Origin: an uncultured Collinsella sp. | GTDB taxonomy: Bacteria; Actinomycetota; Coriobacteriia; Coriobacteriales; Coriobacteriaceae | Length of the DNA stretch: 64,000 nt | NCBI GenBank assembly: GCA_900545745.1 | Contig: URAD01000001.1 | Span: 12,611 to 76,610 of the forward strand | Direction: 5' to 3' | Shown here: positions 11,946 through 61,261 of the stretch, one piece after another | How positions within the stretch are numbered: the first letter of the stretch is position 1 | How the letters are laid out: each line of letters opens with the position of its first letter | Notes under the pieces: model-generated | Seen by the model: only the letters and a program-made list of their open reading frames with translations | Told to the model about the DNA's origin: nothing | Databases searched by the model: none | Translations under genes and position numbers: made by a program

Positions 11946-12012
11946 AGTTGCGGTGGAATAGGGACTGTTTGGGGCTCCAGTCCTCCAAAACAGTCCCTAT
12001 TCCACCGCAACT
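11946..12012. repeat. palindromic intergenic repeat element, copy 1 (AGTTGCGGTG-arm ... arm-CACCGCAACT)
   Basis: agttgcggtggaatagggactgttt ... aaacagtccctattccaccgcaact. The arms are ~25 bp and perfectly complementary. Confidence 0.8.
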
Positions 12013-12050
12013 TCGGTAGGACTCGGCAGCCTGGCGATGCTGGCCATGCG

Positions 12051-12235
12051 CCGGAAAGCGTGTCCCGGTTTGGGGCCTCGGAATGGGATGCAATTTCCGC
12101 TATAGCCATCAACCGGAAACTGCAACCCGTTTTGAGCCCCTATTCCGGGATGCACTTTCCGCCAAGGCCCTCAAACGGAAACTGCAGCCCACAATTCAGT
12201 TGAAAAGTGGGCTGCAGTTTCCCCGGGCTAGGCAA
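12051..12235. repeat. array of three degenerate ~60-bp tandem units, each forming a hairpin (ggaaactgca ... tgca(a/c)tttcc); the last is a perfect 14-bp stem
   Basis: Seen directly in sequence between the xdh-like operon 3' end and the copy-1 palindrome (ccggaaactgcaaccc...gggatgcactttccg; acggaaactgcagccc...gggctgcagtttcc). Confidence 0.6.
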
Positions 12236-12259
12236 TGAGCGGGTACAGCGCCTCCTCGC

Positions 12260-15091
12260 CTACTCCCCCAGCAGGGCCTTCTCGGGCGTGATCGGCAGTG
12301 AGCGAACCTGATGGCCGGTGGCGTGCGCCACGGCCGAGGCAACGGCAGCGAGCGGCGTGTTGATGACGACCTCGCCGATCGACTTGGCGCCAAACGGGCC
12401 CGTCGGCTCGTAGCTCGGCTCAAAGGCCACGCGGATGCTACCGATATCCAGTCGCGTGGGCAGCTTGTAGCTCATAAAGTTGCCGGTGCGCAGGCGGCCG
12501 CGGTCGTCGTGCTCGACAATCTCGTAGAGCGCGTGACCGATACCCTGGGCAATGCCGCCCTCGGCCTGGACGCGCGCGAGCGCCTCGTTGATCACGGTGC
12601 CGCAGTCAACGGCAGCGGCGTAATCCACCACGGTCACCTTGCCGGTGGCCTTGTCAACCTCGACCTCGGCAATGCCGGCCATAAACGGCGGAGGCGAAAC
12701 GGGCAGGCAGGCAGAGGCATGCGAGGTCAGCGCGTCGCCGCCCGCGATGTTCTTGACGCACAGGTTGGCAAAGTCGCGCAGCGTGAGGTAGCGGTTCTGC
12801 TCGCGCGCGGCACGCTCGTCGGACAGGCGCACATACTGACCATCAAAGACCACATCGGCGGCGTCCACGTCCCACATCTGGGCGGCCTTGGCGCAGATCT
12901 TCTCGCGCAGCTCGGTCGCGGCGTTCTTTGCTGCCAAGCCCGTCACGTACGTGCCCGAACTCGCGTACGAGCCGGCGTCGAACGGCGACACGTCGGTGTC
13001 CACGCCGTGCACCACAATGAGCGAGCTTTCAACGCCCAGCTCCTCGGCGGCAATCTGCGCCAGAATCGTGTCGACGCCCATGCCGTTATCGGTGGCGCCG
13101 GTACCGATGGTAATGAAGCCGTCCTCTTCCAGGCGCATATCGATGCCGGCGATGTCCACGTTAGAGATGCCCGAGCCCTGCATGGTGAGCGCGCAGCCAA
13201 GGGCACGCACGCGGTCGCCCAGGTCGACGGCTAGCGGCTTGTCGCGCCAGCCGATCATGTCCATCGCGCGCAGCAGGCAGCGGTCGAGTGCGCAGGCGTT
13301 GAGCTTCTCGTTGTAGTACTGCGGCATGATCTCGCCCTCGCGCACGATGTTCTTAAGGCGCAGGTCGGCGGGGTCCATGTGCAGCATGTCGGCGAGCTCG
13401 TTGACGGCGCTCTCCACGGCAAACTGACCCTGGGTGGCACCGTAGCCGCGATACGCGCCGCCGCGGTTGGTGTTGGTGTAGACGGCGTCCCAGCTAAAGC
13501 GGCTCGCCTTCACATGGTTGTAGATGGGCAGGCTCTTATGGCCCGAAAGGCCGATTGTCGTGGTAGCGTGCTCGCCGTACGCGCCGGCGTTAGACAGCGT
13601 GTGCAGATCGATGGCCGTGATGGTGCCGTCGTTCATGGCGCCCAGCTTGACGGTCATCTGCATCTGGTGGCGCGAGTTGCCCGCGGTGATGGTCTCCTCA
13701 CGGGTGTAGCAGCAGTAACTCGGACGGCCGGTCTGCTGGGTGACGAACGCCACGAAGATCTCGCAGCAGCCCGTCTGCTTGGAGCCAAAGCCGCCACCGA
13801 TGCGCGGCTTAATGACCTGCACCTGCGACTGCGGAATATCGAGCGACTGCGCGACCATGCGGCGCACGTGGAAGGGCACCTGCGTAGAGGTGGTCACCGA
13901 AATGCGCCCAAACGCGTCGGTCGTCGCGAAGGCTCGGAAGGTCTCCATGGGCGCGGTCTGCGTGGCCTGGCTGGTGTAGGTGCGGGTGAAGACGATGTCG
14001 CTCTGGGCAAAGGCCTCGTCCAAGTCGCCAAAGTCGCTCGTGCCGCTGCATACCAAGTTGCGCGGGACGTCGCCGCCCTGCGGAAACATAAAGGTCACGT
14101 CGCCCTCGGGGTGGACCACGATGTCGTTATCGAGTGCCTGGGTAAAGTCGAGCAGCGGCTCGAGCACCTCGTAGTCGACCTTGATGAGCTTGAGCGCCTT
14201 GTCGGCGGCCTCCTCGGTCTCGGCGGCGACGATCGCCACCTCCTCGTTTTGGTAGCGCACGAGGTTCTCGAGGATCAGGCGGTCGTAGGGACTCGGCTGC
14301 GGATAGCTCTGGCCGGCAATGGTAAAGCGGCGCTTGGGAACGTCCTCGTATGTGTAGACGCCCACGACGCCGGGTACCTTCAGTGCGCGCGACGTATCGA
14401 TGGAACGGATCTTGGCGCGGGCATAGGGGCTGCGCTTGAGCTTGACGATCAGGGCGCCGGCGGGCACCAGGTCGCCCGTGTAGACGGGACGCCCCTCGAG
14501 CAGGGCCTTCGAGTCCTTCTTGGGCTGCTTATGAGTGATCTGCTTATAGGAGACGCCGTCAGAACTGGTGTCGTTGACCGGCAGCTCGGGCATCTCAAAG
14601 CCCACCTGCACGCCGGACTCGTTGAGGAAGCGCACGATGGCGCGCAGCTGGCTCTCGTAGCCGCTGCAACGGCAGAGGTTGCCGGCGAGCTGGCGCGAGA
14701 GCTCCTCGCGCGTGGCGACGAGGCTCGGGTCCTCCTTGGCGGCGCGGGCAAGCGCCAGCACGTTCATGATGAGGCCGGGAGCGCAAAAACCGCACTGCTC
14801 GGCGCCTTCGGCAGCCATTGCGCGGGTCAGCGCCTCAGACTCGGCCTTGAGACCCTCGAGTGTGGTGATGGTATGGCCCTCAACACGGGCGGCGGGAACC
14901 GAGCAGCTCAGCACCGGGTCGCCGTCGAGCCACACCGTGCACAGACCGCAGTTGGTGGTCTCACAGGCACAGCGTACCGACGCGCAGCCCTGCTCGCGCA
15001 GCAGCGCAAAGAGCATGGTGTCGGGGGCAATCTGAACCTTGACCTTACGGCCGTTGAGCGTAAAGGAAAGATCGATGAGTTTGGCAGCCAT
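12260..15091 (-). CDS. xanthine dehydrogenase-family molybdoenzyme, fused [2Fe-2S] + molybdopterin-binding subunit (XdhD/Mop-like)
   Basis: N-terminal 2Fe-2S ferredoxin domain (CGLCTVWLDG, CRCSGY), then aldehyde oxidase/xanthine dehydrogenase a/b hammerhead and Moco-binding domains. 943 aa. Its start overlaps the FAD-subunit stop (TAATG). Confidence 0.85.
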   Translation of the reverse strand: MAAKLIDLSFTLNGRKVKVQIAPDTMLFALLREQGCASVRCACETTNCGLCTVWLDGDPVLSCSVPAARVEGHTITTLEGLKAESEALTRAMAAEGAEQCGFCAPGLIMNVLALARAAKEDPSLVATREELSRQLAGNLCRCSGYESQLRAIVRFLNESGVQVGFEMPELPVNDTSSDGVSYKQITHKQPKKDSKALLEGRPVYTGDLVPAGALIVKLKRSPYARAKIRSIDTSRALKVPGVVGVYTYEDVPKRRFTIAGQSYPQPSPYDRLILENLVRYQNEEVAIVAAETEEAADKALKLIKVDYEVLEPLLDFTQALDNDIVVHPEGDVTFMFPQGGDVPRNLVCSGTSDFGDLDEAFAQSDIVFTRTYTSQATQTAPMETFRAFATTDAFGRISVTTSTQVPFHVRRMVAQSLDIPQSQVQVIKPRIGGGFGSKQTGCCEIFVAFVTQQTGRPSYCCYTREETITAGNSRHQMQMTVKLGAMNDGTITAIDLHTLSNAGAYGEHATTTIGLSGHKSLPIYNHVKASRFSWDAVYTNTNRGGAYRGYGATQGQFAVESAVNELADMLHMDPADLRLKNIVREGEIMPQYYNEKLNACALDRCLLRAMDMIGWRDKPLAVDLGDRVRALGCALTMQGSGISNVDIAGIDMRLEEDGFITIGTGATDNGMGVDTILAQIAAEELGVESSLIVVHGVDTDVSPFDAGSYASSGTYVTGLAAKNAATELREKICAKAAQMWDVDAADVVFDGQYVRLSDERAAREQNRYLTLRDFANLCVKNIAGGDALTSHASACLPVSPPPFMAGIAEVEVDKATGKVTVVDYAAAVDCGTVINEALARVQAEGGIAQGIGHALYEIVEHDDRGRLRTGNFMSYKLPTRLDIGSIRVAFEPSYEPTGPFGAKSIGEVVINTPLAAVASAVAHATGHQVRSLPITPEKALLGE

Positions 15092-16005
15092 TAGCGCACC
15101 TCGCTAGAATCGACGCCGGGCACGCGGCGGCAGGAATACTCATCCGTGGCGAACTTAGGGATCTGCACGGTCTCGAGCTCGCGGGCAAGCGCGGCAGAAA
15201 GCTCGATGCCGGCGGCGCGGCGCACGGCCTGAATCGCCAACGGTGCCGAGATGCGGCGGCGGTAGTCAGCCGAGCCCCACAGGTTGGTGCCATAGCTCAG
15301 TGCGCGTACGGACGCGGCCAGGGCGCGAAGCTCGTCCTCGGAAGGCCGCTCGTTCACCAGGCCACACGACTCGCCCTGCAGCAAGGTCGCGCGCAGCGGG
15401 CGGGCGCCCACGGTGACATGCCAGCTGTTGTCCCACCAGGCGGCGGTGACGTTCAGCGAGGGGAAGTCCGTCGCGGCCTTGCGCACGGCCTCGTAGCTCG
15501 CACGGTAATCGTGCTTGACGACTACGACGTGCTCAATCACGTCACGCACGTAGCCCATGTCCACGAACTCCGCGAGCGGCACGCGGCCGGCGCCCGTCAG
15601 CTCAACATACGAATCGAGCGCCAAAAAGGCCGAGAGCACGTCCGAAAAACCAAAGCGGCCGTAGATGCTGCCGCCCACCGTGGCGGTATTGCGCAGCTGC
15701 ACGCCCACGATGTCGTGGATGGCGAACTCAAAGACATTGTTGACAAGCGCGTTGAGCCCGGCATGACGCTCGAGCTGGCGCAGGGTGCACATGGCACCGA
15801 TGCGAAACTCGGTCTCGGTCTCCTCGATCTGATCGAGTCCGCAGGCCGAAAGGTCAATCGCCGTCGCCACGCGACGCGAACCCAGGCGCATCCAGATGCC
15901 GCCGCCCACAATCTTGTTGTTGCGGTTCTTCTGCAAGAGCTCATAGGCTTCGGCCGCGTTTCCAACACGGACGTAGGTACCGAACTTGAGCACGTTCTCC
16001 CCCAT
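15091..16005 (-). CDS. xanthine dehydrogenase-family FAD-binding subunit (CoxM/XdhB/YgfM-like)
   Basis: FAD-binding PCMH-type domain (KFGTYVRVGNAAEAYELL...KIVGGG). It sits immediately upstream of, and is translationally coupled to, the Fe-S/Moco subunit. Confidence 0.8.
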   Translation of the reverse strand: MGENVLKFGTYVRVGNAAEAYELLQKNRNNKIVGGGIWMRLGSRRVATAIDLSACGLDQIEETETEFRIGAMCTLRQLERHAGLNALVNNVFEFAIHDIVGVQLRNTATVGGSIYGRFGFSDVLSAFLALDSYVELTGAGRVPLAEFVDMGYVRDVIEHVVVVKHDYRASYEAVRKAATDFPSLNVTAAWWDNSWHVTVGARPLRATLLQGESCGLVNERPSEDELRALAASVRALSYGTNLWGSADYRRRISAPLAIQAVRRAAGIELSAALARELETVQIPKFATDEYSCRRVPGVDSSEVR

Positions 16006-16088
16006 CTCTTCACTTGTCCAGTACTTTTAAGTGTACCAAACGAGGAGCCGCACACCGTTTTAGGACAAAATCCACCCACCCATCCATA

Positions 16089-16156
16089 ACTTGCGGTGAT
16101 ATACGGACTGATTAGCCGTTCTGGGACGCTAAACAGTCCGTATATCACCGCAAGTT
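16089..16156. repeat. palindromic intergenic repeat element, copy 2
   Basis: acttgcggtgatatacggactgatt ... aaacagtccgtatatcaccgcaagtt. The arm substitutions are mirrored in the partner arm. Confidence 0.75.
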
Positions 16157-16235
16157 ATGAGGAGTCCTCCGGGATAGAAAAGGCTCCCAGCCGGAATGGC
16201 TGGGAGCCTCATCACATGCTATGTCGAGCGAAGAT

Positions 16236-17591
16236 TTAGCAGACGCCCTGGGCGAGCATGGCGTCGGCGACCTTCAGGAAGCCGGCGATGTTGGCGCCCA
16301 TGACGAAATTGCCCTCCTGGCCATACTCCTTGGCGGTGTCGTCCACGTTGTGGAACATGCCGCGCATGAGCTGCTCGAGCTTGCCGTCGACCTCCTCGAA
16401 GGTCCAGGACAGGTGCTCGGCATTCTGGCTCATCTCCAGGCCGGATACGAGTACGCCGCCGGCGTTGGCAGCCTTGCCGGGCATAAAGGCGACGCCGTTC
16501 TCCTGGAAGTAGGTCGTGGCCTCGATGGTCGTAGGCATGTTCGCGCCCTCGCCGACCACCGTGCAGCCGTTGGCGACGAGCGCCTGGGCGTCCTCGAGCA
16601 GCAGCGTGTTCTCGCGAGCGCAGGGCAGCGCGATGTCGCAGGGAAGCTGCCACACGCCGCGGCCGTCGCCCTCGTGCCACACGGCGCTGGGCCTCTCGTC
16701 AACGTACATAGCGAGCGTAACGCCCTTGTCGTGGCCAGAGCGCTTCTTGTTGTAGATGAGCTCGAGCACGGTGTAGTCGATGCCGTCGGGATCCTCGACC
16801 CAGCCGTGGGTATCGGAGCAGGCGAGCACCTTGCCGCCGAGCTGAGTGACCTTCTGGACCGCGTAGATAGCGACGTTGCCGGAGCCGTGAACGACGACGT
16901 TCTTGCCCTCGAAGGAGTCGCCGCGGCTCTTGAGGTACTCGTCCACAAAGTAGGCCAGACCGTAACCGGTGGCCTCGGTACGGGCGAGCGAGCCGCCAAA
17001 GGAGAGGCCCTTGCCGGTGAGGACGCCGGTCCACTCGTTGGTCAGGCGCTTGTACTGACCGAACAGGTAGGCAACCTCGCGGCCGCCAACGCCCAGGTCG
17101 CCGGCGGGAACGTCGGTGTTGGGACCGATGTGGCGATAGAGCTCGGTCATGAAGGACTGGCAGAAGTGCATGATCTCGTTGTTGGACTTGCCCTTGGGGT
17201 CAAAGTCGGAGCCGCCCTTGCCGCCGCCCATGGGAAGGGTGGTCAGGCTGTTCTTGAGAATCTGCTCCAGACCCAGGAACTTGAGCATGCCCAGGGTGAC
17301 CGTCGGGTTAAAGCGCAGGCCGCCCTTGTAAGGTCCAATGGCAGAGTTGAACTCGACGCGGTAGCCGCGATTGACCTGGACCTTGCCCTGGTCGTCGACC
17401 CAGGGGACACGGAACATGACGATGCGCTCGGGCTCGACGAGGCGCTCAAGCAGGGCGGCCTCCTCGTACTCGGGATGGGCGTCGAGCGCCGGCTGGATGG
17501 TGCCGAGGATCTCGGTCGCGGCCTGGATGAACTCAGGCTGCTCGGGATAGCGGGCCTTGAGCTCGTCGAGAACTTTCTGCGTGTAGCTCAT
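16236..17591 (-). CDS. gdhA: NADP-specific glutamate dehydrogenase
   Basis: Strong GdhA signature (GGGKGGSDFDPKGKS, GVLTGKG). Start at MSYTQKVLDEL with a GGAGGAAG RBS. Confidence 0.9.
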   Translation of the reverse strand: MSYTQKVLDELKARYPEQPEFIQAATEILGTIQPALDAHPEYEEAALLERLVEPERIVMFRVPWVDDQGKVQVNRGYRVEFNSAIGPYKGGLRFNPTVTLGMLKFLGLEQILKNSLTTLPMGGGKGGSDFDPKGKSNNEIMHFCQSFMTELYRHIGPNTDVPAGDLGVGGREVAYLFGQYKRLTNEWTGVLTGKGLSFGGSLARTEATGYGLAYFVDEYLKSRGDSFEGKNVVVHGSGNVAIYAVQKVTQLGGKVLACSDTHGWVEDPDGIDYTVLELIYNKKRSGHDKGVTLAMYVDERPSAVWHEGDGRGVWQLPCDIALPCARENTLLLEDAQALVANGCTVVGEGANMPTTIEATTYFQENGVAFMPGKAANAGGVLVSGLEMSQNAEHLSWTFEEVDGKLEQLMRGMFHNVDDTAKEYGQEGNFVMGANIAGFLKVADAMLAQGVC

Positions 17592-17848
17592 GCTTCCTCC
17601 AATTGATGGAAAAGAAAAGTGTCGTTCGAGGCGCCCCATGCGCCGCGAGCTTTATCGAGTATGGATAATATCGCACTGTTGCAGCAAAGTTTCGCATAAG
17701 CCGACGAGCGGATGTTTCGTTTTGATTACGATGCAGGTAGAAGCGTTTTTGAGTGCCTGACGTGCAAAACCCGTGTTTCAAACCTGTTTCGTCCACGTGT
17801 TCCAAACCACCACATTGGGGACAGGCACCTTTGTGGTGGTGTTGGTGG

Positions 17849-18244
17849 TTAGAGGACGAGCTGGTGGTAGTCGGCGGGGGTTACGCGGCCCTCGGTGGCG
17901 GCGCGGAAGGCGGCGAGGGCATCGCCCGAGAACGGCATGGCCCAGCACAGTCCGCAGCCGGCGGTGATGGAGCCGGGCAGCGGCATGATGCGCCCAGGAA
18001 CACCGGCGGCAAGGCACAGCTGTTCGCATTCCATCACATCGAAGGTGCTGTCGAACGACACGATGATTTTGCGTTCATGGTCGAGAGCATCACCGGACGG
18101 GCCTTCGCGGTGTGCATCGCGATACGCCGCGGCGGCCGCTTCCTCTTCCGCAGTATGTCCACAGCCATCGCAACCGCAGGTACAGGGTTCGGACCCGTCG
18201 CAAGTGCAAGGTTCTCCCGTGTCGGGACAAATATCGTGAGACAT
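17849..18244 (-). CDS. DUF3343-like (putative Se/S carrier) protein with a Cys-rich N-terminal extension
   Basis: The C-terminal ~75 aa (KIIVSFDSTFDVMECEQLCLAAGVPGRIMPLPGSITAGCGLCW) matches the DUF3343 pattern. The N-terminus CPDTGEPCTCDGSEPCTCGCDGCGH is a metal-binding-like Cys cluster. Confidence 0.5.
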   Translation of the reverse strand: MSHDICPDTGEPCTCDGSEPCTCGCDGCGHTAEEEAAAAAYRDAHREGPSGDALDHERKIIVSFDSTFDVMECEQLCLAAGVPGRIMPLPGSITAGCGLCWAMPFSGDALAAFRAATEGRVTPADYHQLVL

Positions 18245-18259
18245 GGCAACTCCAATCGT

Positions 18260-18892
18260 CTAGGCGAGTAACTCGGCCGCCGCAAACTCCTCGGGCGTAT
18301 TGACGTTCTCGAAGCAGAGCGTCGAGCCGGCGGCCTTAACGATCTGCGACTCATCCATATAACCAGCCTGAACGCGATTGATCAGGCAGCGAATGCGCTG
18401 GCGGTCGCAGGCGAGCAGCTCTTGGGCAACCGGCGCACACGCGTCACGGCGCCAGACGGCGCAAAGCGGCTCAATCCCCCGCTCCTCGCGCGGCACGCAC
18501 GCGTCGAGCGCCTCGACCTCAACACGATCCGCAAGAGCGCCGATGAGTTCCGGCGAGACAAACGGCATATCGCAGGCAACGATCGCCACGAGAGGCAGCC
18601 GAGCCGCAGCCAACGAGCTCGCGATGCCGCGCATGGCGCCCGCCGGCCCTTCAAGGTCCGCCACCACACGCGGCACCAGGCCGCCAAACGCGCGCTCTTC
18701 AAGGTGGGCAAGCTCGCAGGGGCGCGACGTCGTGACGACCAGTTCGCCGGCAACTGGCGCCAGCCGACCCAGCACGCGCTCGATGAGCGGCTCGCCGCAA
18801 AACGCCATGCGCGCCTTATCGCAGCCCATACGCGAGGACAACCCGCCCGCTTGAACGACGCAAGAAAGATCGGCCCGTCTTACGGTAGTCAT
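18260..18892 (-). CDS. MobA-like nucleotidyltransferase (molybdenum cofactor guanylyl/cytidylyltransferase MobA/MocA family)
   Basis: LSCVVQAGGLSSRMG.DKA...GEPLIERVL is a MobA-like NTP-transferase motif. Start at MTTVRR (18892). The 5'-extended track ORF (to 19126) reads as Arg/Cys-rich non-coding translation. Confidence 0.65.
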   Translation of the reverse strand: MTTVRRADLSCVVQAGGLSSRMGCDKARMAFCGEPLIERVLGRLAPVAGELVVTTSRPCELAHLEERAFGGLVPRVVADLEGPAGAMRGIASSLAAARLPLVAIVACDMPFVSPELIGALADRVEVEALDACVPREERGIEPLCAVWRRDACAPVAQELLACDRQRIRCLINRVQAGYMDESQIVKAAGSTLCFENVNTPEEFAAAELLA

Positions 18893-19047
18893 ACGGCAAA
18901 CCACCCCCATCGGCATGCTAAAAACCCGGTGCACGAGGCCATGCGCCATCGCCGAAAAAGAAGGCGACACGACAACCCCGCGCCAAAACAAAACAGCGCC
19001 TTTGCGGCACGCAGCAAGACCGCGAGCACAAAAGCGCTGGTAGCGTA

Positions 19048-19144
19048 TGGCGGGAACGTATGTGAATCGAACACATCCAAGACGTTTTGCACGCCTCGCA
19101 ACGGTTTTGAGGACCGCGGAGCCCACCGGAGCCCATCCGTTCCC
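19048..19144 (-). tRNA. selC: tRNA-Sec (selC), anticodon UCA
   Basis: The reverse complement is GGGAACGGATGGGCTCCGGTGGGCTCCGCGGTCCTCAAAACCGTTGCGAGGCGTGCAAAACGTCTTGGATGTGTTCGATTCACATACGTTCCCGCCA (97 nt). It has a long acceptor stem, CTCCGGTG D-arm, UCA anticodon and long variable arm, and is collinear with my recollection of E. coli selC. Confidence 0.8.
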
Positions 19145-19201
19145 AAGTGCGCCGGTATTTTACCAAACCGAAACGGCTCCATCCCAAAAAGACGAGCAAG
19201 A

Positions 19202-19267
19202 AGTTGCGGTGGAATAGTTCCTGTTTTTGCTGCCAAAGCCCCCAACTAGGAACTATTTCACCGCAAC
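19202..19267. repeat. palindromic intergenic repeat element, copy 3
   Basis: agttgcggtggaatagttcctgttt ... actaggaactatttcaccgcaac. The arm variants (gttcc/ggaac) are compensatory. Confidence 0.75.
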
Positions 19268-19293
19268 AGAGGAGACGGGGGCAGGTGACCGGC

Positions 19294-21261
19294 CTAGCGC
19301 AGGGAGCGCAGGCCGCCGGCATCCTTGTCAAGGACTGTGAAGCGTACGGCATCTAGATGCTCAAGGATGCTGATGGCGCGCTTGCGCGACACGCCCAGGG
19401 ACTCGCGTAGCACACTCGTGGTGGCAGCGCCGCCGGCGTCGGTGATGGCAGCAGCGACAAGCTCGCGCGCATGGGCCTCGGCGGTAGCGGACAGGGCAAC
19501 GTCACGTTCGACCTTCACGATGGAACGGTTGAGCGAAAGCTCGCGCAGCGCACGCGTCATGGTGTCGCGATCGAGCTGGAGTTGCTCGCCCACCTCGGGC
19601 AACGTCGGCGCATCGAGGCCGGCTTCGTCCAGCAAGGCAACGATGCGTTCGCTGGCCTCGCGCACCACGCGTGCCGCCGCGGCGGCCGAATGCGGATCGA
19701 ACACCTCGGCGCCCTCGGAGGCGCACACGCCGCGAGAGCAGCCCTCGGAAATCAGGGCTGCGGCAACTGTATCGTCAGCGGTAGGCCAAGCAGCATGGGC
19801 GACGGCGCCGGGCGTAAAGCCCGTCTCCTTGGGGGCAGCCGCGTGCATGGCAGACAGGGTCGCCGCCAGGGCATCCATCGCAGCGTCAAGCACCACGGCG
19901 TCCGCCAAGAGGTCCGTTTCACCCGCGGCAAGTTTGCGAACGGAGCCCTGCGTCACCAACCCGCGCAGCGCGGCATCGACCTGGCCGACACCAAGATCCA
20001 AAGCCTCGGCAACATCAATCACCGTAACCGGCAGCGCCTGCAGCGCAAGCCAAGCGCCCACACCGCCCGCGATATCGCCGGACTCGAGCGCCACATACAG
20101 CGCACGCTCCCCCGCCGAAAGCTCGCGCGAGCGACGGCAGCGCGAAAGCAGCACGCGCCCGCCGCCGATGAGCATGACCGGCGAATAGGACAGCACCACG
20201 GCATGGTCGCCGGCACGCAGCGGCAGCGGTTCCTCCAAGCGCACCTGCACGGTACGGGTCTCGCCCACCGCCATGGGGGCCTCGCCCTCCATGAACATGA
20301 TGCGGCCGACGACCTCGGCCGTACCGGCCATCACGTGCACGCGCGCACCCGACTCGAGCACACGCGGCTTGGCTCCCTCGCGACCCAAAAACGTAAACGC
20401 CATCATAAAGCGCAGCGTCTGGCCAAAGTGACCCTCCACGCCGAGCATCTCACCGCGATCGAGCGCAGCGACGCCATCGCCCACCAGGTTGAGCGCCACG
20501 CGCTGACCGGGCAGCGCCCGCTGCGTGTCGCCATGCACTTGGATCCCGCGTACGCGGCAGGCCGTGCGCGACGGCAGCGCGACGAGCTCATCGCCCACCG
20601 CAACCGGCGCATCGTGCAGCGTTCCCGTCACGACGGTGCCGGCGCCCTTGATCGTAAAGCAGCGGTCAATCGGCAAGCGCGGCGCGGCATCGGTGCGCTC
20701 GGCACGGTCGCGGCAGGTATCCCAGCAGGCATCCACGCACTCATCGAGCGCTGCCAGCAGCGCATCAATCCCCTCGCCCGTCTTAGACGACACAGGCACG
20801 ATCGGCGCGCCCGCAAACACGGTACCCGACAAAAAGTCGTCGACATCGAGCTCGGCAAGCTCGGTCATCTCGGCATCAGCCAAATCGCACATCGTCAGCG
20901 CGACCACCATATGCGTAACGCCCAGCAGTTCCAGCACATGCACGTGCTCGCGGGTCTGCGGCATCACGCCCTCGACGGCAGAGACCACCAACACGGCAAC
21001 ATCAATGCCCGTGGCACCCTGCACCATGGCGCGCAGGTAATGGGCATGCCCGGGCACGTCGACCAGGCCAACGATCTTGCCGCTCGGCAGCGCCAGCTCG
21101 CCAAAGCCCAGCTCCACGGTCATACCGCGACGGCGCTCAACCTCCAGACGGTCGGGATTCTTGCCGGTCAGCGCCTCGATCAGTGCGGACTTACCGTGGT
21201 CGACGTGGCCCGCCGTGCCAACGATAACGGGACACTCCACCAACGCCTGAACCTCACTCAT
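19294..21261 (-). CDS. selB: selenocysteine-specific translation elongation factor SelB
   Basis: N-terminal GTPase (GTAGHVDHGKS, DVPGH) and a long winged-helix C-terminus. It overlaps selA by 4 nt. Confidence 0.9.
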   Translation of the reverse strand: MSEVQALVECPVIVGTAGHVDHGKSALIEALTGKNPDRLEVERRRGMTVELGFGELALPSGKIVGLVDVPGHAHYLRAMVQGATGIDVAVLVVSAVEGVMPQTREHVHVLELLGVTHMVVALTMCDLADAEMTELAELDVDDFLSGTVFAGAPIVPVSSKTGEGIDALLAALDECVDACWDTCRDRAERTDAAPRLPIDRCFTIKGAGTVVTGTLHDAPVAVGDELVALPSRTACRVRGIQVHGDTQRALPGQRVALNLVGDGVAALDRGEMLGVEGHFGQTLRFMMAFTFLGREGAKPRVLESGARVHVMAGTAEVVGRIMFMEGEAPMAVGETRTVQVRLEEPLPLRAGDHAVVLSYSPVMLIGGGRVLLSRCRRSRELSAGERALYVALESGDIAGGVGAWLALQALPVTVIDVAEALDLGVGQVDAALRGLVTQGSVRKLAAGETDLLADAVVLDAAMDALAATLSAMHAAAPKETGFTPGAVAHAAWPTADDTVAAALISEGCSRGVCASEGAEVFDPHSAAAAARVVREASERIVALLDEAGLDAPTLPEVGEQLQLDRDTMTRALRELSLNRSIVKVERDVALSATAEAHARELVAAAITDAGGAATTSVLRESLGVSRKRAISILEHLDAVRFTVLDKDAGGLRSLR

Positions 21262-28473: not shown

Positions 28474-28474
28474 A

Positions 28475-40797: not shown

Positions 40798-40843
40798 GTT
40801 GTAATTGACCATTCATGTTGCACGCTCATTAAGGGGGCCAGTG

Positions 40844-41167
40844 ATGTCATCGACGCAAAAACGAGCCATCCTGCAGGTGCGCATTCGCGAAGAGGACAAA
40901 CAGCATGCCGAGCGCCTCTACGACGCCATGGGCACATCGCTCGCCGAGGCTGTCCGTCTATTTGTCGTGCAAAGCATTTTGATGCGCAAGCTTCCCTTTC
41001 AGCCGGTCGCCGTGCGCTCAAAGGACGGCACCGCCGCCTATGGATCGCTCAAAGCATATGGGGACCCCAATCGCCGCTCCGAGGAGCGCAATGCCTGGAT
41101 TGAATACCTAGCCACAGAAAGCGATGAGTCGGTTTTGGGTCCCGAGGAAGTAGATATCCATGAGTAG
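40844..41167 (+). CDS. RelB/DinJ-family type II antitoxin (second copy)
   Basis: MSSTQKRAILQVRIREEDKQHAERLYDAMGTSLAEAVRLFVVQSILMRKLPFQP matches the DinJ RHH pattern. AAGGGGG RBS. It overlaps the downstream gene. Confidence 0.6.
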   Translation: MSSTQKRAILQVRIREEDKQHAERLYDAMGTSLAEAVRLFVVQSILMRKLPFQPVAVRSKDGTAAYGSLKAYGDPNRRSEERNAWIEYLATESDESVLGPEEVDIHE

Positions 41168-41636
41168 CACCATCATCGACGAGACCGTCATCCTGCGCTA
41201 CCTGCTTAACGACGACGAGGTCCTGTCACCGCGCGCCGCCAAGGTCATCGCCACGCGCACCGCTCGCGTCTACCCCGAGATCATCACACGCGTCGCCGTT
41301 ACGCTGCGCGACGTCTACAAGGTCCCGCGCGTGGAGATTGCGACGGCCATGACCAAGCTGCTCGATGACGTCATGGTCGACGAGCCCACCGTTATCGCCC
41401 TTGCCATCAAACTCTTTGGCAAGACTCATATGGACTTTACCGACTGCCTCCTCGCAGCCCGAACCGCCATCTATAACGACGACGTCGTGAGCTTTGGCAA
41501 GCCCATCATCCAAGGCATGATCGACTACCGCCGCCAGCGCCAAACCGCCGCCGACGCCCGCGACCGCGCCGCCGAAGCCCGCAGCCGAAGCACCGACTCC
41601 ACCATCGACAAGCTCCGTCACCGCCCCCGCAGCTAA
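41160..41636 (+). CDS. PIN-like toxin partner (degenerate PIN; DTN replaced by DET)
   Basis: IIDETVILRYLLNDD ... MDFTDCLLAARTAIYNDDVVSF. Same size and architecture as the 1222..1707 PIN protein, with translational coupling to the antitoxin. Confidence 0.45.
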   Translation: MSSTIIDETVILRYLLNDDEVLSPRAAKVIATRTARVYPEIITRVAVTLRDVYKVPRVEIATAMTKLLDDVMVDEPTVIALAIKLFGKTHMDFTDCLLAARTAIYNDDVVSFGKPIIQGMIDYRRQRQTAADARDRAAEARSRSTDSTIDKLRHRPRS

Positions 41637-41651: not shown

Positions 41652-41718
41652 AGTTGCGGTGAAATACGGACTGTTTTTGCTGGTCAAACCGCAAAACAGT
41701 CCGTATTTCACCGCAACT
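41652..41718. repeat. palindromic intergenic repeat element, copy 4
   Basis: agttgcggtgaaatacggactgttt ... aaacagtccgtatttcaccgcaactt. Confidence 0.8.
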
Positions 41719-41746
41719 TATTGAAGGTTGACCGCGAACGATTTCG

Positions 41747-42769
41747 CTATCGGGAGTCGACGTAGGGTTTTGTTGTCGGAATGCCGTAGCCGCGCATCAT
41801 GGCACCGAACGATTCCACGTCGTAGGTGTCCGAGAGTTTGAAATGAATGACATTGTGGCCCATGGCGCGAAGGTTCGCGTCGCGCATGAGGGCCGCTCGA
41901 TACGTTTTTGCCGCCGCCCGCTCTGGATCATTTTGAGCCTCGTCTTCAAACTTGCCTAGCCCATGCAGCTCTGCCAGCGTCCATGAGCCGTCTGGCATCT
42001 GCCAGCCATAATCTGCTAGATAATAGCCAGCGTTTCCCGGTCGCGTTATCTCAACTTGAAGCTCGGGCGCGGCAACCCCAGCGAGAATCATCGCTGCTCT
42101 CGCCTCAGACTCGCCGCCATTGTCTGACCTGCCGTCCATATACTCAAAAACGTCAAAAGCACGCGCGATGCCATGCAACCCTCGGCAATTTGCCTGCGCG
42201 TATGCTCGCAGTTCTTCGCGTTCGACATCGTACTCACGGGCCAAGCCATCGACATAGCCCAGCGCATAGCGAAAGGCGCTCGTTCGAGCGATATCAACAA
42301 CCGTTCGACACGGATCCGTCAGTGTAAACAGACCTAGCCGCCACACTTCGCCCGCCCGCCAGCGCTTGTATTCAACGAACTCATACGTATCACGCCTTGT
42401 AGACCGTGGCAGCAGTACTTGCACTTTATCCAGAAGCGTATACGCCGAGCCGATGCCGTAGAGCAGCGCTGCCGTCGATCCGCAAAACACAGCATCCGGT
42501 TCAACGACCGCAATAGCGGATGCCAGCTGAAAGATGCGATCTTCAACCCCAAGATTATTCCAATAGACCGGATCCGCATACACATGGTTGTAAAGACGAA
42601 GCATGAGCTCTTCCTGCATAAGCTCGCGCGCACGGCGTTCATCCCAAGGATCAATTGTTATAAGCAGCTGTCCATCTTGATGAATTCCAACGGCCGAGAA
42701 TAGCATTCTTGCATATGACTGCGGAAAATGTTTGCCTTTATCGAGCATGGCCAACCCCATAACCATCAC
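41747..42769 (-). CDS. DUF559 (Vsr/PD-(D/E)xK-like endonuclease-fold) domain protein, hypothetical
   Basis: The C-terminal region GESEARAAMILAGVAAPELQVEITRPGNAGYYLADYGW matches my recollection of the DUF559 motif. The gene is visibly lower in GC than its flanks and is bracketed by repeat copies 4 and 5. Confidence 0.5.
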   Translation of the reverse strand: MMVMGLAMLDKGKHFPQSYARMLFSAVGIHQDGQLLITIDPWDERRARELMQEELMLRLYNHVYADPVYWNNLGVEDRIFQLASAIAVVEPDAVFCGSTAALLYGIGSAYTLLDKVQVLLPRSTRRDTYEFVEYKRWRAGEVWRLGLFTLTDPCRTVVDIARTSAFRYALGYVDGLAREYDVEREELRAYAQANCRGLHGIARAFDVFEYMDGRSDNGGESEARAAMILAGVAAPELQVEITRPGNAGYYLADYGWQMPDGSWTLAELHGLGKFEDEAQNDPERAAAKTYRAALMRDANLRAMGHNVIHFKLSDTYDVESFGAMMRGYGIPTTKPYVDSR

Positions 42770-42923
42770 GGCGGAGAGAATACCATTACGCTATCGCATG
42801 CCTCCGTCCGCAGGCCTTGCCAAAAGCTGACCAAAAACTTGACGCCGCAGGTCAGAGCTTCAAAAAATAATTCCACTCTCGGTAGACGGTCGCTACGACC
42901 CTCCCAACGGCATCAAAATCCAA

Positions 42924-43000
42924 CCTTACAAATAGTTGCGGTGAAATACGGACTACATGGGCCATAAAAGCCGAAAAACAGTCCGTATTTCACCGCAACT
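42924..43000. repeat. palindromic intergenic repeat element, copy 5
   Basis: agttgcggtgaaatacggact ... cagtccgtatttcaccgcaact. The arms are identical to copy 4. Confidence 0.8.
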
Positions 43001-51352: not shown

Positions 51353-51372
51353 AGCCGCTGGACCGGATAGCC

Positions 51373-53039: not shown

Positions 53040-53085
53040 AGGGAACGAAACGGCGGGCTGCCGAGAATCCTCGACAGCCCGCCCT
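53040..53085 (-). terminator. GC-rich hairpin (ggcgggctg...cagcccgcc) downstream of modC
   Basis: Seen directly in sequence, followed by a U/C-rich tract on the minus strand. Confidence 0.4.
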
Positions 53086-53090
53086 CTGCC

Positions 53091-54161: not shown

Positions 54162-54164
54162 AGC

Positions 54165-55607: not shown

Positions 55608-55675
55608 GAAAAGCTCCAAGCGAATACGAGGACGGAGTGAAACACAAAACGATGGAATTATCGCGCCAAGCCGCA

Positions 55676-56548: not shown

Positions 56549-56592
56549 ATTCAACCCTTTCGGACCTTGTGCCCGGGTACCCCACCGCGGGC

Positions 56593-56614
56593 TATAATCT
56601 GCAATCAGATTATA
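56593..56614. promoter_or_regulatory. palindrome tataatctg-caat-cagattata in the modA leader; candidate ModE-type operator (and -10-like TATAAT)
   Basis: 9-bp perfect arms, about 45 bp upstream of the modA start, inside the 200-nt mogA-modA intergenic region. Confidence 0.35.
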
Positions 56615-56751
56615 CTTTTGCGCGAATAATGATAGTGAGAAATTATTCTCGTCAGAGAATATAGTTTTGAGTTAGCGTGCACCTCGGCGTCGCTTCGGTG
56701 GAAAACAAAAGCGGAGCAGCCGTTCAGGTCGCCCCGCCGCAGGTAAACCGC

Positions 56752-57231
56752 TTAGTTGGTATGTCCGCCGCCCGCTGTCATCTGAGCCGCATGCTCCAGC
56801 TGGTCCGCTATGGCCTCCCAGCTTTCGCGGGCGGCCTTTGTAGAACCGGGAAAGTTCACGACAAGTGTATGACCTCGTTGCATGCAAATAGCGCGCGAGA
56901 GCATGGCGCGGCGCGTCTTGGTCATCGAGTACGCACGGATTGCCTCTGCAATACCCGGCACATCGCGGTCGCAGACGGCACGCGTCGCCTCGGGCGTCAC
57001 ATCGCGCATCGAAAGCCCCGTGCCGCCGCAGGTGAGCACGACATTGGCGTGACACTCATCGGCGGCTTCCACAATGGCATCACCAATCTCGCTGACGTCG
57101 TCGCGCACGACCACATGCGAGGCGACCGTCCAGCCCTGCGCCCCGATAAGTTCCTCGAGTGCGGCTCCAGCCTCGTCCTGAGCAAGATCGCGCGTGTCCG
57201 AACACGTCACGATCGATATCTTCAACTCCAT
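56752..57231 (-). CDS. mogA: molybdenum cofactor biosynthesis protein MogA/MoaB family
   Basis: ISIVTCSDTRDLAQDEAG...VVLTCGGTG...D.TPEAT. Start at MELKISIV with an AGGAGGAAG RBS. Confidence 0.75.
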   Translation of the reverse strand: MELKISIVTCSDTRDLAQDEAGAALEELIGAQGWTVASHVVVRDDVSEIGDAIVEAADECHANVVLTCGGTGLSMRDVTPEATRAVCDRDVPGIAEAIRAYSMTKTRRAMLSRAICMQRGHTLVVNFPGSTKAARESWEAIADQLEHAAQMTAGGGHTN

Positions 57232-57241
57232 AGTCTTCCTC

Positions 57242-58504: not shown

Positions 58505-58714
58505 ATGCACCTCTTAATGCCACGGCGCACAACAGGGGCGCCGATTCTTTATGCTTATCTCAGTATAATCCCCCGCCGCACTACCGCGACTTGGCCTGTA
58601 CCCGCAAATACACCTGTCGGTTGCAGGCCGCGAAACAGAATGGAAACCAACCCACCGGCTCGTCGCGTTTACCGCGTTTTATAATGCTTGCGTTGCAACC
58701 TAAAAGAGGAACGT

Positions 58715-60136
58715 ATGGCTCATAACGACAAACCCGAAAGCGCAAACGAAGCGCAGGATCATTCCCAGCCGCTCGACGAAGGCGGTTTTTTCTCCCTGAA
58801 CGACGTCATCACGGCAGGCAGGCATCAGCTCACCCGCTCTGAGCATCTCTTGGCTGCCGACACGCGCCGCAACGCCCGCAACCTACTCGCGAGCACCAAG
58901 TTGCTCGCACTCGTCGTCATCGTCTCGCTCGCCATGGGCGTTGCCGCTTGGGCGTTTTTGGCCTCGCTGAATATCGCGACCGACTATCGCGAGCACCATG
59001 CGTGGGTCTACGCCTTGCTTCCCGTTGTGGGCATGGCCACCGCATGGGTCTACAAGAACCACGGTCTCGCCGCAAAGCGTGGCAACAACCTGGTCATCGA
59101 CTCCGCTCTGGGCACACGCCTCATCCATATGCGCATGGCCGTCCTCACGTTTGTGTGCTCCACGCTCACGCACCTAACGGGCGGATCGGCCGGTCGCGAG
59201 GGGGCCGCGGTGCAGATTGGCGGCACCATCGCCAGCAACATCTCGAGCCTCGCCCACCTCAAAAAGCATGACCACCACGACCTCATGCTCGCCGGCATCT
59301 CGTCGGCCTTTGGTGCCGTATTCGGTTCGCCCCTTGCCGGAGCTTTCTTTGGCATGGAGATGTGCTTTATCGGCAAGATTGACTACACCGCGGGCATTTA
59401 CTGCCTGGTCGCCTCGTTTACCGGCTACTTTACATCAATCGCCCTGGGTACCGAGTACGAAGCGAATGTCATCGCCAGCGTTCCCGCCATGACGCCCAAA
59501 ACGGTCGTCATCGTTGTTATCAACGCCATCATCTTCGGTCTGACGGCACGCCTCTTTGCGTGGTCGGTTCGAACCGTCAAGAGCCTGTACGGTCGCTTTA
59601 TCACCAATTACCTCGTTCGCGCACTTATAGGAGCACTCGTGGTTTTGGCCGCGTATGCCCTCCTCGACGCCTGGGACTACGCCGGCCTTTCCACATGGCT
59701 TTCCGGCGCCGGATTTGCCGGCAACACCACCCTGGCGGACGCAGCCATCAAGTTGGTCGTCACAGCGCTTACCCTGGGCGCGGGCTTCCAAGGCGGCGAG
59801 GTCACGCCCCTGTTTGGCATCGGCGCGGCACTCGGTGGCTGGATCGGTTGCCTTACCGGGCTCGACCCCAGTTTTCTGGCGGCTCTCGGCATGCTCGGCG
59901 TGTTCTGCGCCGGCCTCAACGTGCCCATCACCACCTGCATGATGGCCATCGACCTGTTCCACGGCACGGCCGCCGGGTTCTTTGTCATCGTGGCCTTTAT
60001 CAGCTACCTAACCGGCGGACACCGCGGCGTGTACCCCGCCCAGCGCATCATCTCGCCCAAGCGCCGTTCGCTTATTGTGGATGAGGGCGGTACGGTAGCG
60101 GATGCTATCGAGCGCCACAACGACCTGATAGAGTAG
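58715..60136 (+). CDS. CLC-family channel/antiporter with non-canonical selectivity-filter motifs (GNNLV, GREGA, GEVTP); CLC-F (fluoride/proton antiporter)-like
   Basis: GNNLV in place of GSGIP, GREGAAVQIG, and GEVTP in place of GxFxP. Polytopic, 473 aa from MAHNDK. Confidence 0.7.
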   Translation: MAHNDKPESANEAQDHSQPLDEGGFFSLNDVITAGRHQLTRSEHLLAADTRRNARNLLASTKLLALVVIVSLAMGVAAWAFLASLNIATDYREHHAWVYALLPVVGMATAWVYKNHGLAAKRGNNLVIDSALGTRLIHMRMAVLTFVCSTLTHLTGGSAGREGAAVQIGGTIASNISSLAHLKKHDHHDLMLAGISSAFGAVFGSPLAGAFFGMEMCFIGKIDYTAGIYCLVASFTGYFTSIALGTEYEANVIASVPAMTPKTVVIVVINAIIFGLTARLFAWSVRTVKSLYGRFITNYLVRALIGALVVLAAYALLDAWDYAGLSTWLSGAGFAGNTTLADAAIKLVVTALTLGAGFQGGEVTPLFGIGAALGGWIGCLTGLDPSFLAALGMLGVFCAGLNVPITTCMMAIDLFHGTAAGFFVIVAFISYLTGGHRGVYPAQRIISPKRRSLIVDEGGTVADAIERHNDLIE

Positions 60137-60222
60137 ATGTAATAATCGCCGTGCAGCCACAATCGGGGTCAATTCGACCTGAGCGCGACCGCACTGTCAT
60201 GTCACACGCCGGGAGTCGCCCC

Positions 60223-61185
60223 ATGCACGCAACTGATTTTGGCCGCACGCTCATTATCGCCAACCCAGCCGCCCAGTCGGGTGCGGCGCGCGAAGTTGCC
60301 GAGCGCCTGCAACGCTTTTTGGACATGACCGCACGCGCATCCCATTTTGACCTGGTGCTGACCGAGCGCATGGGACACGCCAAGGAGCTGGCCGCACAGG
60401 CTCAGGGCTATCGCACCGTTATCGCCCTTGGCGGCGACGGCGTGATTCACGAGGTCGTCAACGGACTTATGACGCAAGAGCAGGACGCCCGCCCCGCTCT
60501 TGCCATCCTACCTGTGGGCTCCGGCAACGATTTTGCCCAGACGCTCGACATCGACGATTTCTCCGGCAAGGATTTTGGCGCGCTGCTCACCTGCGAGCTG
60601 CAGCGTCAGGACGTCGGGCGCATTCGCTCATGGAACCCCGCAAACGGTAGCGGCAAGGCTTCCGTTGAGTACTACGACCAGACGCTTTCGATCGGCATCG
60701 ATGCCGCCATCGGCCTTGGCACCACCGAACTGCGAAAAAAGACCGGCTTGACGGGCGCTCCGCTCTACACCCTCTCGGGACTTGAGCAGTTTGGCCTGCG
60801 CTATCGCAACTACCCCATGACAGCCAGCTTTGATCGCGCGCCCGCCGAGCGCGTGAGGGCGATCATCATGGCGATTCAGCTGGGTCCTACCTATGGCTCG
60901 GGCTATCGCATCTGTCCCGACGCCGACCCCTGTGACGGTATATTCGACGTCTGCTACGCCTGCGGCCCCGTTCCGCGCGCGGTCGCGCTTCCCATGTTCC
61001 TTTCGGCCAAAGATGGCCACCATACCAAGTTGCCGCCGGTTCGCATGCGCCGCTGCCGCCATGCCGAGCTTACCTTTGAGGAGCCCGACTACCCCATCCA
61101 GGCCGACGGCGAGCCCGTTGTCGCCTCACGCATCGAGGTCGACATCCTCGCCGGCGCCCTCGAGGTCTGGCACCCCACCCGCTAA
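60223..61185 (+). CDS. diacylglycerol kinase catalytic domain lipid kinase (YegS/DagK family)
   Basis: LIIANPAAQSG ... ALGGDGVIHEVVNGL ... VGSGNDFA. Confidence 0.75.
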   Translation: MHATDFGRTLIIANPAAQSGAAREVAERLQRFLDMTARASHFDLVLTERMGHAKELAAQAQGYRTVIALGGDGVIHEVVNGLMTQEQDARPALAILPVGSGNDFAQTLDIDDFSGKDFGALLTCELQRQDVGRIRSWNPANGSGKASVEYYDQTLSIGIDAAIGLGTTELRKKTGLTGAPLYTLSGLEQFGLRYRNYPMTASFDRAPAERVRAIIMAIQLGPTYGSGYRICPDADPCDGIFDVCYACGPVPRAVALPMFLSAKDGHHTKLPPVRMRRCRHAELTFEEPDYPIQADGEPVVASRIEVDILAGALEVWHPTR

Positions 61186-61194
61186 CCCCACCTA

Positions 61195-61261
61195 AGTTGC
61201 GGTGAAATAGGGACTGTTTATGCAGCAAAAGCCGCAAAACAGTCCCTATTTCACCGCAACT
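61195..61261. repeat. palindromic intergenic repeat element, copy 6
   Basis: agttgcggtgaaatagggactgttt ... aaacagtccctatttcaccgcaactt, between convergent gene ends. Confidence 0.8.

Follow-up and report, generated by a model that had tools for sequence, protein, structure and literature searches.

The window analysed here is a stretch of 64,000 nucleotides from an uncultured Collinsella sp. (assembly GCA_900545745.1, contig URAD01000001.1, positions 12,611 to 76,610 of the forward strand), a genus that ranks among the most abundant in the human gut and among those most finely split, and whose assemblies are notoriously fragmented. It contains six palindromes, each of exactly 67 bp, which start at positions 11946, 16089, 19202, 41652, 42934 and 61195 and are numbered here as copies 1 to 6. 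They belong to a repeat family that recurs throughout the genus and at which structural change is concentrated. An earlier note, made from the sequence alone, had singled out the same six elements; five of its coordinates were correct, and the start given for copy 5, 42924, was a typing error.

A search of the window with the pattern AGTTGCGGTG-N35-60-CACCGCAACT returned four matches, all of 67 bp, against 0.00 expected from 100 shuffles, and allowing one mismatch in the 10-mer added two further copies (16089 and 19202). With a profile hidden Markov model (HMM) of the family, the six copies were found and no others. The exact AGTTGCGGTG...CACCGCAACT ends are present in copies 1, 4, 5 and 6 (11946-12012, 41652-41718, 42934-43000 and 61195-61261). 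Copy 2 (16089-16155) ends in ACTTGCGGTG...CACCGCAAGT, a symmetric change, and the right end of copy 3 (19202-19268) is ...CACCGCAACA, which reads CAACA. Taken in order, the arms reported by an inverted-repeat finder measure 29 nt (97% complementarity), 32 nt (97%), 20 nt (95%), 28 nt (100%), 21 nt (100%) and 32 nt (94%), separated by spacers of 11-25 nt. Folded as single-stranded DNA, the copies reach free energies of -23 to -34 kcal/mol, with z-scores of -9.5 to -14.

The intergenic placement at gene 3' ends described in the earlier note holds, since all six copies lie just 3' of a gene or tRNA, two of them between convergent genes, and the absence of a U-tract was confirmed, with no T-run after the element in any of the six. 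Copy 1, of subfamily A (inner arm GGGAC/GTCCC), is found downstream of a xanthine-dehydrogenase-type gene (12260-15091, minus strand) and 118 nt upstream of a tRNA-Leu (minus), and its orthologues are present in L085 and L107 (L-numbers denote the loci or contigs compared). Copy 2, of subfamily C (CGGAC/GTCCG), separates the 3' end of gdh (glutamate dehydrogenase; 16236, minus) from the 5' end of the flavin adenine dinucleotide (FAD)-subunit gene of the next operon (16005). Its symmetric variants comprise the ends, ACTTGC...GCAAGT, and T-A at pair 11-55, and it is present in L085 and absent in L107, with a flank identity of 95%. Copy 3, of subfamily B (GTTCC/GGAAC), follows the selB stop (19294, minus) at a distance of 26 nt and precedes tRNA-Sec (minus) by 58 nt; its orthologue in L001 has a centre of the same length and diverged sequence. 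Copies 1 to 3 stand at gene boundaries of a selenium-related neighbourhood (12260-21261) that comprises SelB, tRNA-Sec, a Se/S-carrier-like protein, a MobA-like nucleotidyltransferase and the xanthine-dehydrogenase-type molybdoenzyme with its FAD subunit.

Copy 4, of subfamily C and with a perfect 28-bp stem, lies between a PIN-like open reading frame (ORF; ends at 41636, plus) and a convergent 340-aa ORF (ends at 41747, minus), and the orthologous site in L004, L011 and L015 holds a subfamily-B allele with an unrelated centre. Copy 5, also of subfamily C, is found downstream of a tRNA-Pro/tRNA-Gly pair (minus) and upstream of the same 340-aa ORF. The segment bracketed by these two copies (41719-42933) thus holds this ORF (41747-42769, minus), for which Pfam and NCBIfam searches gave no match. 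Copy 6, of subfamily A, occupies the 86-nt gap of a convergent pair formed by a diacylglycerol-kinase-like gene (stop at 61185, plus) and an RF-1-domain gene (stop at 61272, minus); an exact-protein look-up of the latter among the contigs returned nothing.

Host range, plan and position of the family

A scan of 185,579 species-representative genomes with GTTGCGGTG-N40-55-CACCGCAAC gave at least 120 loci, and among the matches listed 116 of 120 were from Collinsella, Coriobacteriaceae or unnamed gut bins. A contig assigned to 'Treponemataceae' among these matches is 93% identical to a Collinsella contig, and a Rhodanobacter match was rejected as a chance one, being of the wrong length. The window itself is 88-96% identical to contigs of the Collinsella aerofaciens group. 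In about 0.96 Mb of Collinsella DNA from the matches listed, the family HMM detected at least 146 copies at no fewer than 74 distinct genomic sites. Carriage by phages was also considered and rejected: 2.9 million viral contigs contained two family members, both in host-like regions, and the 17 other matches were chance ones of other lengths. Judged from these sequence matches, the family appears to be specific to Collinsella.

The length of the core is nearly invariant, with 65 nt between the terminal A and T in 134 of 141 cores. GTTGC-N55-GCAAC occurred 129 times against 0-9 times for each other spacing, and no shorter or longer variants of the family were found, since enrichment was seen only at the N55 (N54) spacing. 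The core is built as AGTTGCGGTG-RAATA, followed by GGGAC, CGGAC or GTTCC, by TG and by a degenerate centre of about 23 nt, after which comes the mirror image. Outside the core there is a weak mirror consensus, CCCCTCATAA on the left and TTATGAGGGG on the right, with 50-65% agreement per position, which extends the palindrome to about 87 bp. The arm subfamilies are paired as BB in 40 cases, AA in 33, CA in 14, CC in 7 and AC in 6. That subfamily B could be subfamily A with a flipped inner 5-mer was considered, and the resemblance was judged compatible with chance.

The earlier note had not recognised a named element here, and this was borne out. In Rfam, whose families include Collinsella-1 and REP-like RNAs, searches at the gathering threshold and at E<=10 gave the elements only sub-threshold matches, to unrelated microRNA-hairpin models, one of which scored 39.6 bits against a gathering score of 104; tRNAs alone passed. 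Literature searches gave no relevant mention of the sequence and no description of a Collinsella repeat family. As far as checked, the family is previously undescribed.

Positions relative to genes were counted with one site per orthologous group, and intergenic regions of at least 60 nt served as background. Among 59 classifiable sites, 29 were convergent, 27 co-directional and 3 divergent. The convergent share was therefore 49% (29/59) compared with 19% in the background, where 66% of the regions are co-directional and 15% divergent. Four more sites were called inside a gene, and these are probably gene-calling errors. The distance from the stop codon to the core peaked at 10-20 nt (31 of 97 gene ends), and in none of the 97 cases did a gene end inside the element. 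Proximity to a tRNA, seen for three of the six window copies, was rejected as an association: only 5 of 74 sites are near a tRNA, so it is no family trait. Every arm contains stops in three frames (for example at window positions 11943-11965), namely TAA in the flank, TGA in GGTGAAA and TAG in ATAGGG, and, the arrangement being symmetric, they are present on both strands.

Rearrangements and sequence constraint at the elements

Comparison of related contigs showed the elements to be strong hotspots of structural change. Of 330 internal alignment ends, 28% were situated within 30 nt of an element, compared with 2.4% expected, a 12-fold enrichment of synteny breaks. At one locus, L045 has the arrangement element-gene-element, and L035 and L048 have the same outer flanks with one element. 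Each single element is a chimera of the pair in L045; the crossover falls to the right of the centre in L035 and to its left in L048. In L053, the gene is kept and the second element is missing. Single-versus-double arrangements were also found around a HipA-like gene (L116 versus L098) and around a 3.5-kb insert (L014/L040 versus L062).

The copies that bracket such inserts can be nearly the same in sequence for about 88-90 bp, a stretch made up of the core and about 20 nt of one flank. Direct duplications of this kind bracket accessory genes in L095 (4716-4820 and 5904-6005) and L062 (3127-3220 and 6690-6790), and the same holds with the flank of the other side in L098 (1255-1354 and 2782-2884). 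They could have originated by staggered cutting around the palindrome, by local copy-and-paste or by excision and re-integration. In L004 and L015, two other Collinsella genomes, the outer flanks of copies 4 and 5 are the same and the DNA between the two copies has the opposite orientation, with an identity of 75-77% in this segment against 88-96% in the flanks. Since the outer flanks are the same, the breakpoints lie inside copies 4 and 5.

Variation at a single site was followed with copy 6, for which 62 contigs from human-gut metagenomes were collected by probing with the end of the upstream gene. The centre was inverted in 9 of the 62 contigs, with identical flanks and with 2 differences as reverse complement and 16 in forward orientation. 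The nine contigs have a common flank haplotype, so they may represent a single event. Inversion of the centre was rejected as a general cause of allele replacement, because clean flips were found in 0 of 123 flank-oriented orthologous pairs of the genome loci and are documented only at the copy-6 site. In 29 of the 123 pairs the centres are unrelated in either orientation, and often the arm subfamily has changed as well. Replaced alleles resemble each other only marginally, in runs of 5-8 nt where the background median is 5, and this resemblance was not used.

In 2 of the 62 copy-6 contigs (L152 and L185) the right flank is foreign, and that of L152 is the flank of the L098/L116 site, which indicates recombination between elements at distant loci. 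Elements were found at the edge of non-homologous flanks in L090, L074/L076, L081/L112, L117, L152 and L185.

In addition, a sequence resembling an insertion sequence (IS) was found in the centre of the element in 3 of the 62 copy-6 contigs and, at a second site, in L063. It starts with GGGGGTGCGGACAGAAAGTTGGACC and contains a small hairpin, GGAGG and an ORF beginning MYSREKVELFLLATEDGMGPTAAAKFAG, whose 29-aa N-terminus had no match in Pfam. The occurrences are L197:1-140 (minus), L158:11968-12022, L170:1-55, L063:1-134 and L202:1-116; one is at a non-element site, and all are at contig or locus ends. A look-alike end in L021, which abuts an ordinary TetR-family gene, was discarded, as was a match in the viral collection that ends at a contig edge at a non-element site. 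IS1397 and ISKpn1 are reportedly a precedent of insertion sequences landing in the loop of repetitive extragenic palindromic (REP) elements.

The arms were found to change much less than their surroundings. Nucleotide diversity at the copy-6 site, calculated for the 32 contigs with collinear flanks and a window-like orientation of the centre, was 0.011-0.013 in the arms and 0.084 both in the centre and in the 9-nt spacer, compared with 0.127 in the last 120 nt of coding sequence. In this set, the outer 10 nt of each arm are fixed by the filter, and the inner 12 nt, which are free, have 2 segregating sites. Across 52 orthologous genome pairs, divergence was 0.026-0.037 in the arms and 0.06-0.085 in the flanks. 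The arms thus evolve several-fold slower, being about 7-10 times less diverse than the centre and the adjoining coding sequence. This could be due to selection against mutations that break the stem, to sequence-specific recognition, or to homogenisation or gene conversion among copies.

Nature of the repeat

The elements are best explained as copies of a Collinsella-specific dispersed non-coding palindromic DNA repeat, similar to REP elements and to MITEs (miniature inverted-repeat transposable elements), which is a recombination hotspot and possibly also a 3' hairpin; this reading is considered probable. A REP/MITE-like element was already among the candidate roles named in the earlier note, and a repeated palindrome family at gene 3' ends without a U-tract agrees with it. 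The unit would have spread by copy-and-paste, with an enzyme encoded elsewhere that acts in trans and reads the arm sequence, and such reading of the arms would account for a length that does not vary and for arm classes that are discrete. Copies would persist after genes because insertion there is presumably harmless. As a long inverted repeat capable of forming a hairpin or cruciform, the element would favour template switching as well as short-homology recombination, whether within a copy or between copies. Copies 4 and 6, the only structure between their convergent genes, probably act in addition as a two-way 3'-end hairpin that blocks read-through or exonucleases.

The resemblance to the REP/BIME and REPIN-RAYT systems of Enterobacteria and Pseudomonas covers both sequence organisation and behaviour. 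In both cases there are short extragenic multi-copy palindromes, specific to a genus or species, located after genes and between convergent genes, with discrete sequence classes per genome, vertical persistence at orthologous sites, rearrangement hotspots and IS insertion in the loop. An earlier paper on this subject, by Tobes and Pareja (2006), is cited in PMC8040213. The element differs from REP in being one long palindrome fixed at 67 bp, with 25-bp arms, whereas REP is an imperfect palindrome of 20-40 nt or a doublet of these. It also lacks GT[AG]G at the foot of the hairpin, where the flanks of 72 sites show A-GTTGC...GCAAC-T with a weak ATA/TAT and a C-run/G-run. Unlike in REPIN, where a spacer separates two inverted REPs that are each a small palindrome, the 25-nt arms have no internal palindrome and the element as a whole folds as one hairpin. 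A gene for RAYT, the Y1 transposase that is typically flanked by the repeats, was not seen adjoining the element at the 74 sites, as judged from the top 25 neighbour families in 8-kb blocks, complete genomes not being searched.

Likewise, the family shares with the Correia elements of Neisseria (CREE/NEMIS) and other MITEs terminal inverted repeats of about 25 bp (here arms of 20-32 nt with 94-100% complementarity), a non-coding nature, tens to hundreds of copies near genes, a hairpin when transcribed, a part in genome plasticity and a host without a known autonomous partner. It departs from them in having no TA or other target-site duplication, a length of 67 bp instead of about 100-155 bp, an interior that is degenerate and not conserved, and ragged empty sites. 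In about 1 Mb of Collinsella DNA, no autonomous insertion sequence sharing the element's terminal repeats was observed, and the IS-like end GGGGGTGCGGACAG... has no arm sequence and is found also at a non-element site.

Several observations weigh against a mobile repeat of this kind. Presence/absence pairs with flanks 90-96% identical were found for window copy 2 versus L107, L118 versus L099 and L045 versus L053, but the three 'empty' alleles are ragged: 10-25 nt around the junction differ, and a clean insertion event is not demonstrated. The earlier note had considered that the element might be the terminal inverted repeat of an annotated IS or MITE with target-site duplications, and no such duplication was found; TA is present on both sides at 9 of 72 sites, and there is no direct repeat of at least 3 nt. 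Nor was a mobilising enzyme detected, as ORF clustering and Pfam revealed no recurrent protein family among 218 clusters of neighbouring genes (top 25 families listed, from 8-kb blocks and not whole genomes). Since most sites are kept across genomes about 10% diverged and the copy-6 site is filled in 62 of 62 contigs, current mobility, if any, is low. The slow evolution of the arms is unexpected for purely selfish DNA and needs either a host-level constraint, on structure or protein binding, or gene conversion. As for a role as terminator or stabiliser, copies 2 and 5 are found beyond canonical hairpin-plus-T-tract terminators of gdh and tRNA-Gly, which were read from the sequence (a simple consensus scan flagged neither these hairpins nor the elements).

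The neighbour families listed are ordinary ones of metabolism and housekeeping, and different element pairs bracket different genes. The 340-aa gene between copies 4 and 5 was examined as a cognate REPtron-like enzyme and rejected on two grounds, the lack of a Pfam or NCBIfam match and the diversity of the genes bracketed elsewhere. A collapsed mini-palindrome, GTTGC-GCAAC, was also considered as a target or excision footprint; there was one example near L045/L053, and short spacings were no commoner than in controls.

The main reading of the earlier note was a structured RNA element, either a bidirectional terminator or a stabiliser of the 3' untranslated region, with the hairpin under selection and the character of a DNA repeat secondary. 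This explanation now appears unlikely. It agrees with the location 10-20 nt after stops, the enrichment between convergent genes, the high stability of the hairpins and the fact that copies 4 and 6 are the sole hairpin between their two genes. Diversity is far lower in the arms than in the centre, which would be expected if changes in the stem did harm, and the consensus flanks ATAA/TTAT form a weak A-tract/U-tract pair. Like intrinsic bidirectional terminators, the elements are stable G+C-containing hairpins just after stops, often common to convergent genes. They differ from these in having no T-run, the consensus after the stem being TTATGAGG and a consensus scan flagging no copy, and in having the same 25-bp arms at every site, so that sequence, beyond structure, is common to all of them. 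Moreover, two of the window copies come after canonical terminators, as described above, and there is no Rfam match.

The argument for selection on the hairpin, rather than plain duplication, was based on arm differences between copies that are matched in the partner arm and were read as compensatory substitutions. The differences quoted are truly present in the window copies, but their interpretation mostly fails when subfamily descent, orthologues, strand and chimeras are considered. In 115 distinct cores, pairs 16-50, 17-49 and 18-48 switch jointly between GC/GC/AT and TA/TA/CG, which makes them one block (GGGAC/GTCCC versus GTTCC/GGAAC) distinguishing two subfamilies present at many sites. 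At pair 10-56, the counts in the same cores are AT 49, GT 28, AC 23 and GC 15, and independence predicts 48, 29, 24 and 14. The two arms also vary independently at pairs 21-45 and 19-47, and pair 15-51 shows a CG excess that is only mild. The polymorphic arm positions are therefore unlinked, with 20-44% of the copies mismatched there.

Covariation statistics, which the earlier note had proposed, were computed on 94 distinct arm sets with 500 shuffles and gave a divided result. The covariation score exceeded every shuffle, as did the count of doubly changed cells, but pair-count measures robust to relatedness did not: pairs changed on both sides numbered 10 against 9.8 in shuffles (310 of 500 as high), and further pair types 21 against 23.4. 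Among orthologous copies of the same allele lineage, arm pair-columns had changed in situ on one side in 30 cases and on both sides in 1, contrary to continuing compensation.

No preference for the transcribed strand was detected. In 52 alleles between co-directional genes, G.U was found 31 times on the sense strand and 35 times on the antisense strand (A.C), and, of the two folds, the sense one was the more stable in 23 alleles and the less stable in 27. Compared with shuffled versions of itself, the 23-nt centre has the more stable fold (-3.8 kcal/mol, p = 2e-19). Native centres were also compared with chimeras in which the second half comes from an unrelated site, with -45.1 versus -44.7 kcal/mol and the native sequence better in 49.5% of cases. 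Because the chimeras fold equally well, the pairing of the centre is a family-wide pattern (TTTT-GSSS...SSSC-AAAA) that is not specific to the element concerned, and not site-specific compensation. The matching arm differences are thus inherited subfamily differences and not the result of continuing selection on pairing, and the copies are shown to be alike through descent from a few masters, represented by three arm subfamilies, rather than through stem repair at each site.

Another explanation is that the palindromes are substrates of a hairpin- or cruciform-specific recombination system, integron-like but without an integron platform, whose recombinase would cut on either side and insert, excise or invert accessory and defence genes at hundreds of docking sites at gene 3' ends, flipping the centre as well. 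Such module exchange is held to be quite improbable. It would fit the single-element and element-gene-element alleles at four loci, and the bracketed genes of typical accessory or defence kinds, which by sequence are predicted to encode a HipA-like toxin, an AAA ATPase, a primase-helicase-like protein of 1022 aa, zinc-ribbon proteins and the 340-aa ORF. It would also fit the inverted cassette between copies 4 and 5, the elements at edges of non-homologous flanks, and the invariant 67-bp length and discrete arm classes, which suit recognition by a protein. Cutting on either side of the extruded palindrome would explain the direct duplications of about 88-90 bp that bracket inserts in L095, L062 and L098. 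However, the crossover differs between L035 (right) and L048 (left), which suits recombination at short homologies, or slippage, better than cleavage at a fixed site. A deletion between two pre-existing repeats gives the same pattern of alleles, and L053 keeps the gene without the second element. Most elements are solitary among housekeeping genes, and no recurrent recombinase was found nearby among the neighbour families listed.

The family was also compared with the attC sites of integrons, among them the homogeneous chromosomal repeats of sedentary integrons. Like the element, these are imperfect palindromes of about its size in which the outer inverted repeats are conserved and the centre varies; they too flank single accessory genes and are found as single-site and site-gene-site alleles. 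The core sites of attC, RYYYAAC...GTTRRRY, are nevertheless absent; the element reads GTTGCGG...CCGCAAC on both strands, with the order of GTT and AAC reversed. It has no extrahelical bases that define a strand and no strand asymmetry, and the crossover position is variable. Copies are solitary or paired among housekeeping genes, with no array and no integrase among the listed neighbours. Since it lacks defining features of each of REP, MITE, attC and terminator, the family was classed as a dispersed intergenic palindromic repeat outside the named families.

It is very improbable that the elements are host double-stranded protein-binding sites of BIME/REP type (for gyrase, IHF or another nucleoid protein) where convergent transcription builds supercoiling: two half-sites conserved in sequence, R/Y variants that assort independently, as expected if the half-sites are read separately, fixed spacing, convergent enrichment, low arm diversity and no RNA-strand signal would all suit this role, but nothing points to a binding protein, half-sites of 25 bp are very long for it, the occurrence of the same subfamily in both arms (BB 40, AA 33, very few A/B hybrids) is not required for half-site binding and indicates descent, and presence/absence and allele replacement between close relatives make individual sites dispensable. 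Each of the three alternatives to the DNA-repeat reading accounts for some of the data and is contradicted by at least one test.

As a dispersed DNA repeat, the family is ordinary in kind, and its notable details are the strict length, the enrichment at breakpoints, the bracketing duplications and the flipped centre. A genus-wide repeat located after a large share of genes and at about a quarter of local synteny breaks offers a handle on the gain, loss and inversion of accessory genes in Collinsella. It may help to explain where Collinsella assemblies break, and it is a ready sequence marker for the genus. For the discovery of RNA motifs it advises caution, as a 'covarying' hairpin family was left with no independent compensatory signal after controls for descent, orthologues, strand and chimeras. 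If a dedicated enzyme acts on the element, it would represent a new palindrome-directed recombination or transposition activity in Actinomycetota.

Other repeats and modules

In L023 (7174-7259), a second repeat, GGCAGCTAAAAAAGCCCCGTCCC, makes up a palindrome whose arms measure about 24 bp; the repeat is found 15-60 nt from the 67-bp element at several unrelated sites. It is also present at L007:7409, L032:201, L033:333, L043:4241, L058:302, L103:2457 and 4227, and L117:1913. In addition, the element and tRNA-Sec of L023 are separated by about 338 bp of additional DNA, rich in hairpins, which is missing in the window.

Two more hairpins, built on GGAAACTGCAGCCCAC, are located at window positions 12115-12222, between copy 1 and the 3' end of the xanthine-dehydrogenase-type gene, and are kept solely at the orthologous locus (L085 and L107). 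The window also has two modules of a RelB antitoxin and a PIN-like toxin (894-1707 and 40805-41636), with 16 nt between the end of the second and copy 4.

A segment of about 7.5 kb (659-8171), which adjoins clpX, clpP and trigger factor, is missing from two close relatives (L032 and L058) and is not bounded by the 67-bp element. It holds a RelB/PIN pair, a GH1 beta-glucosidase, a phosphotransferase system (PTS) EIIBC component, an old-yellow-enzyme-type oxidoreductase and a Crp-family regulator. Just left of this segment, at 475-590, two 26-bp arms (GGGGAGGAATGTAGGCCCGATTTTCG) form a perfect inverted repeat around a 64-nt spacer, and this repeat is found solely here and at the orthologous place in L032.

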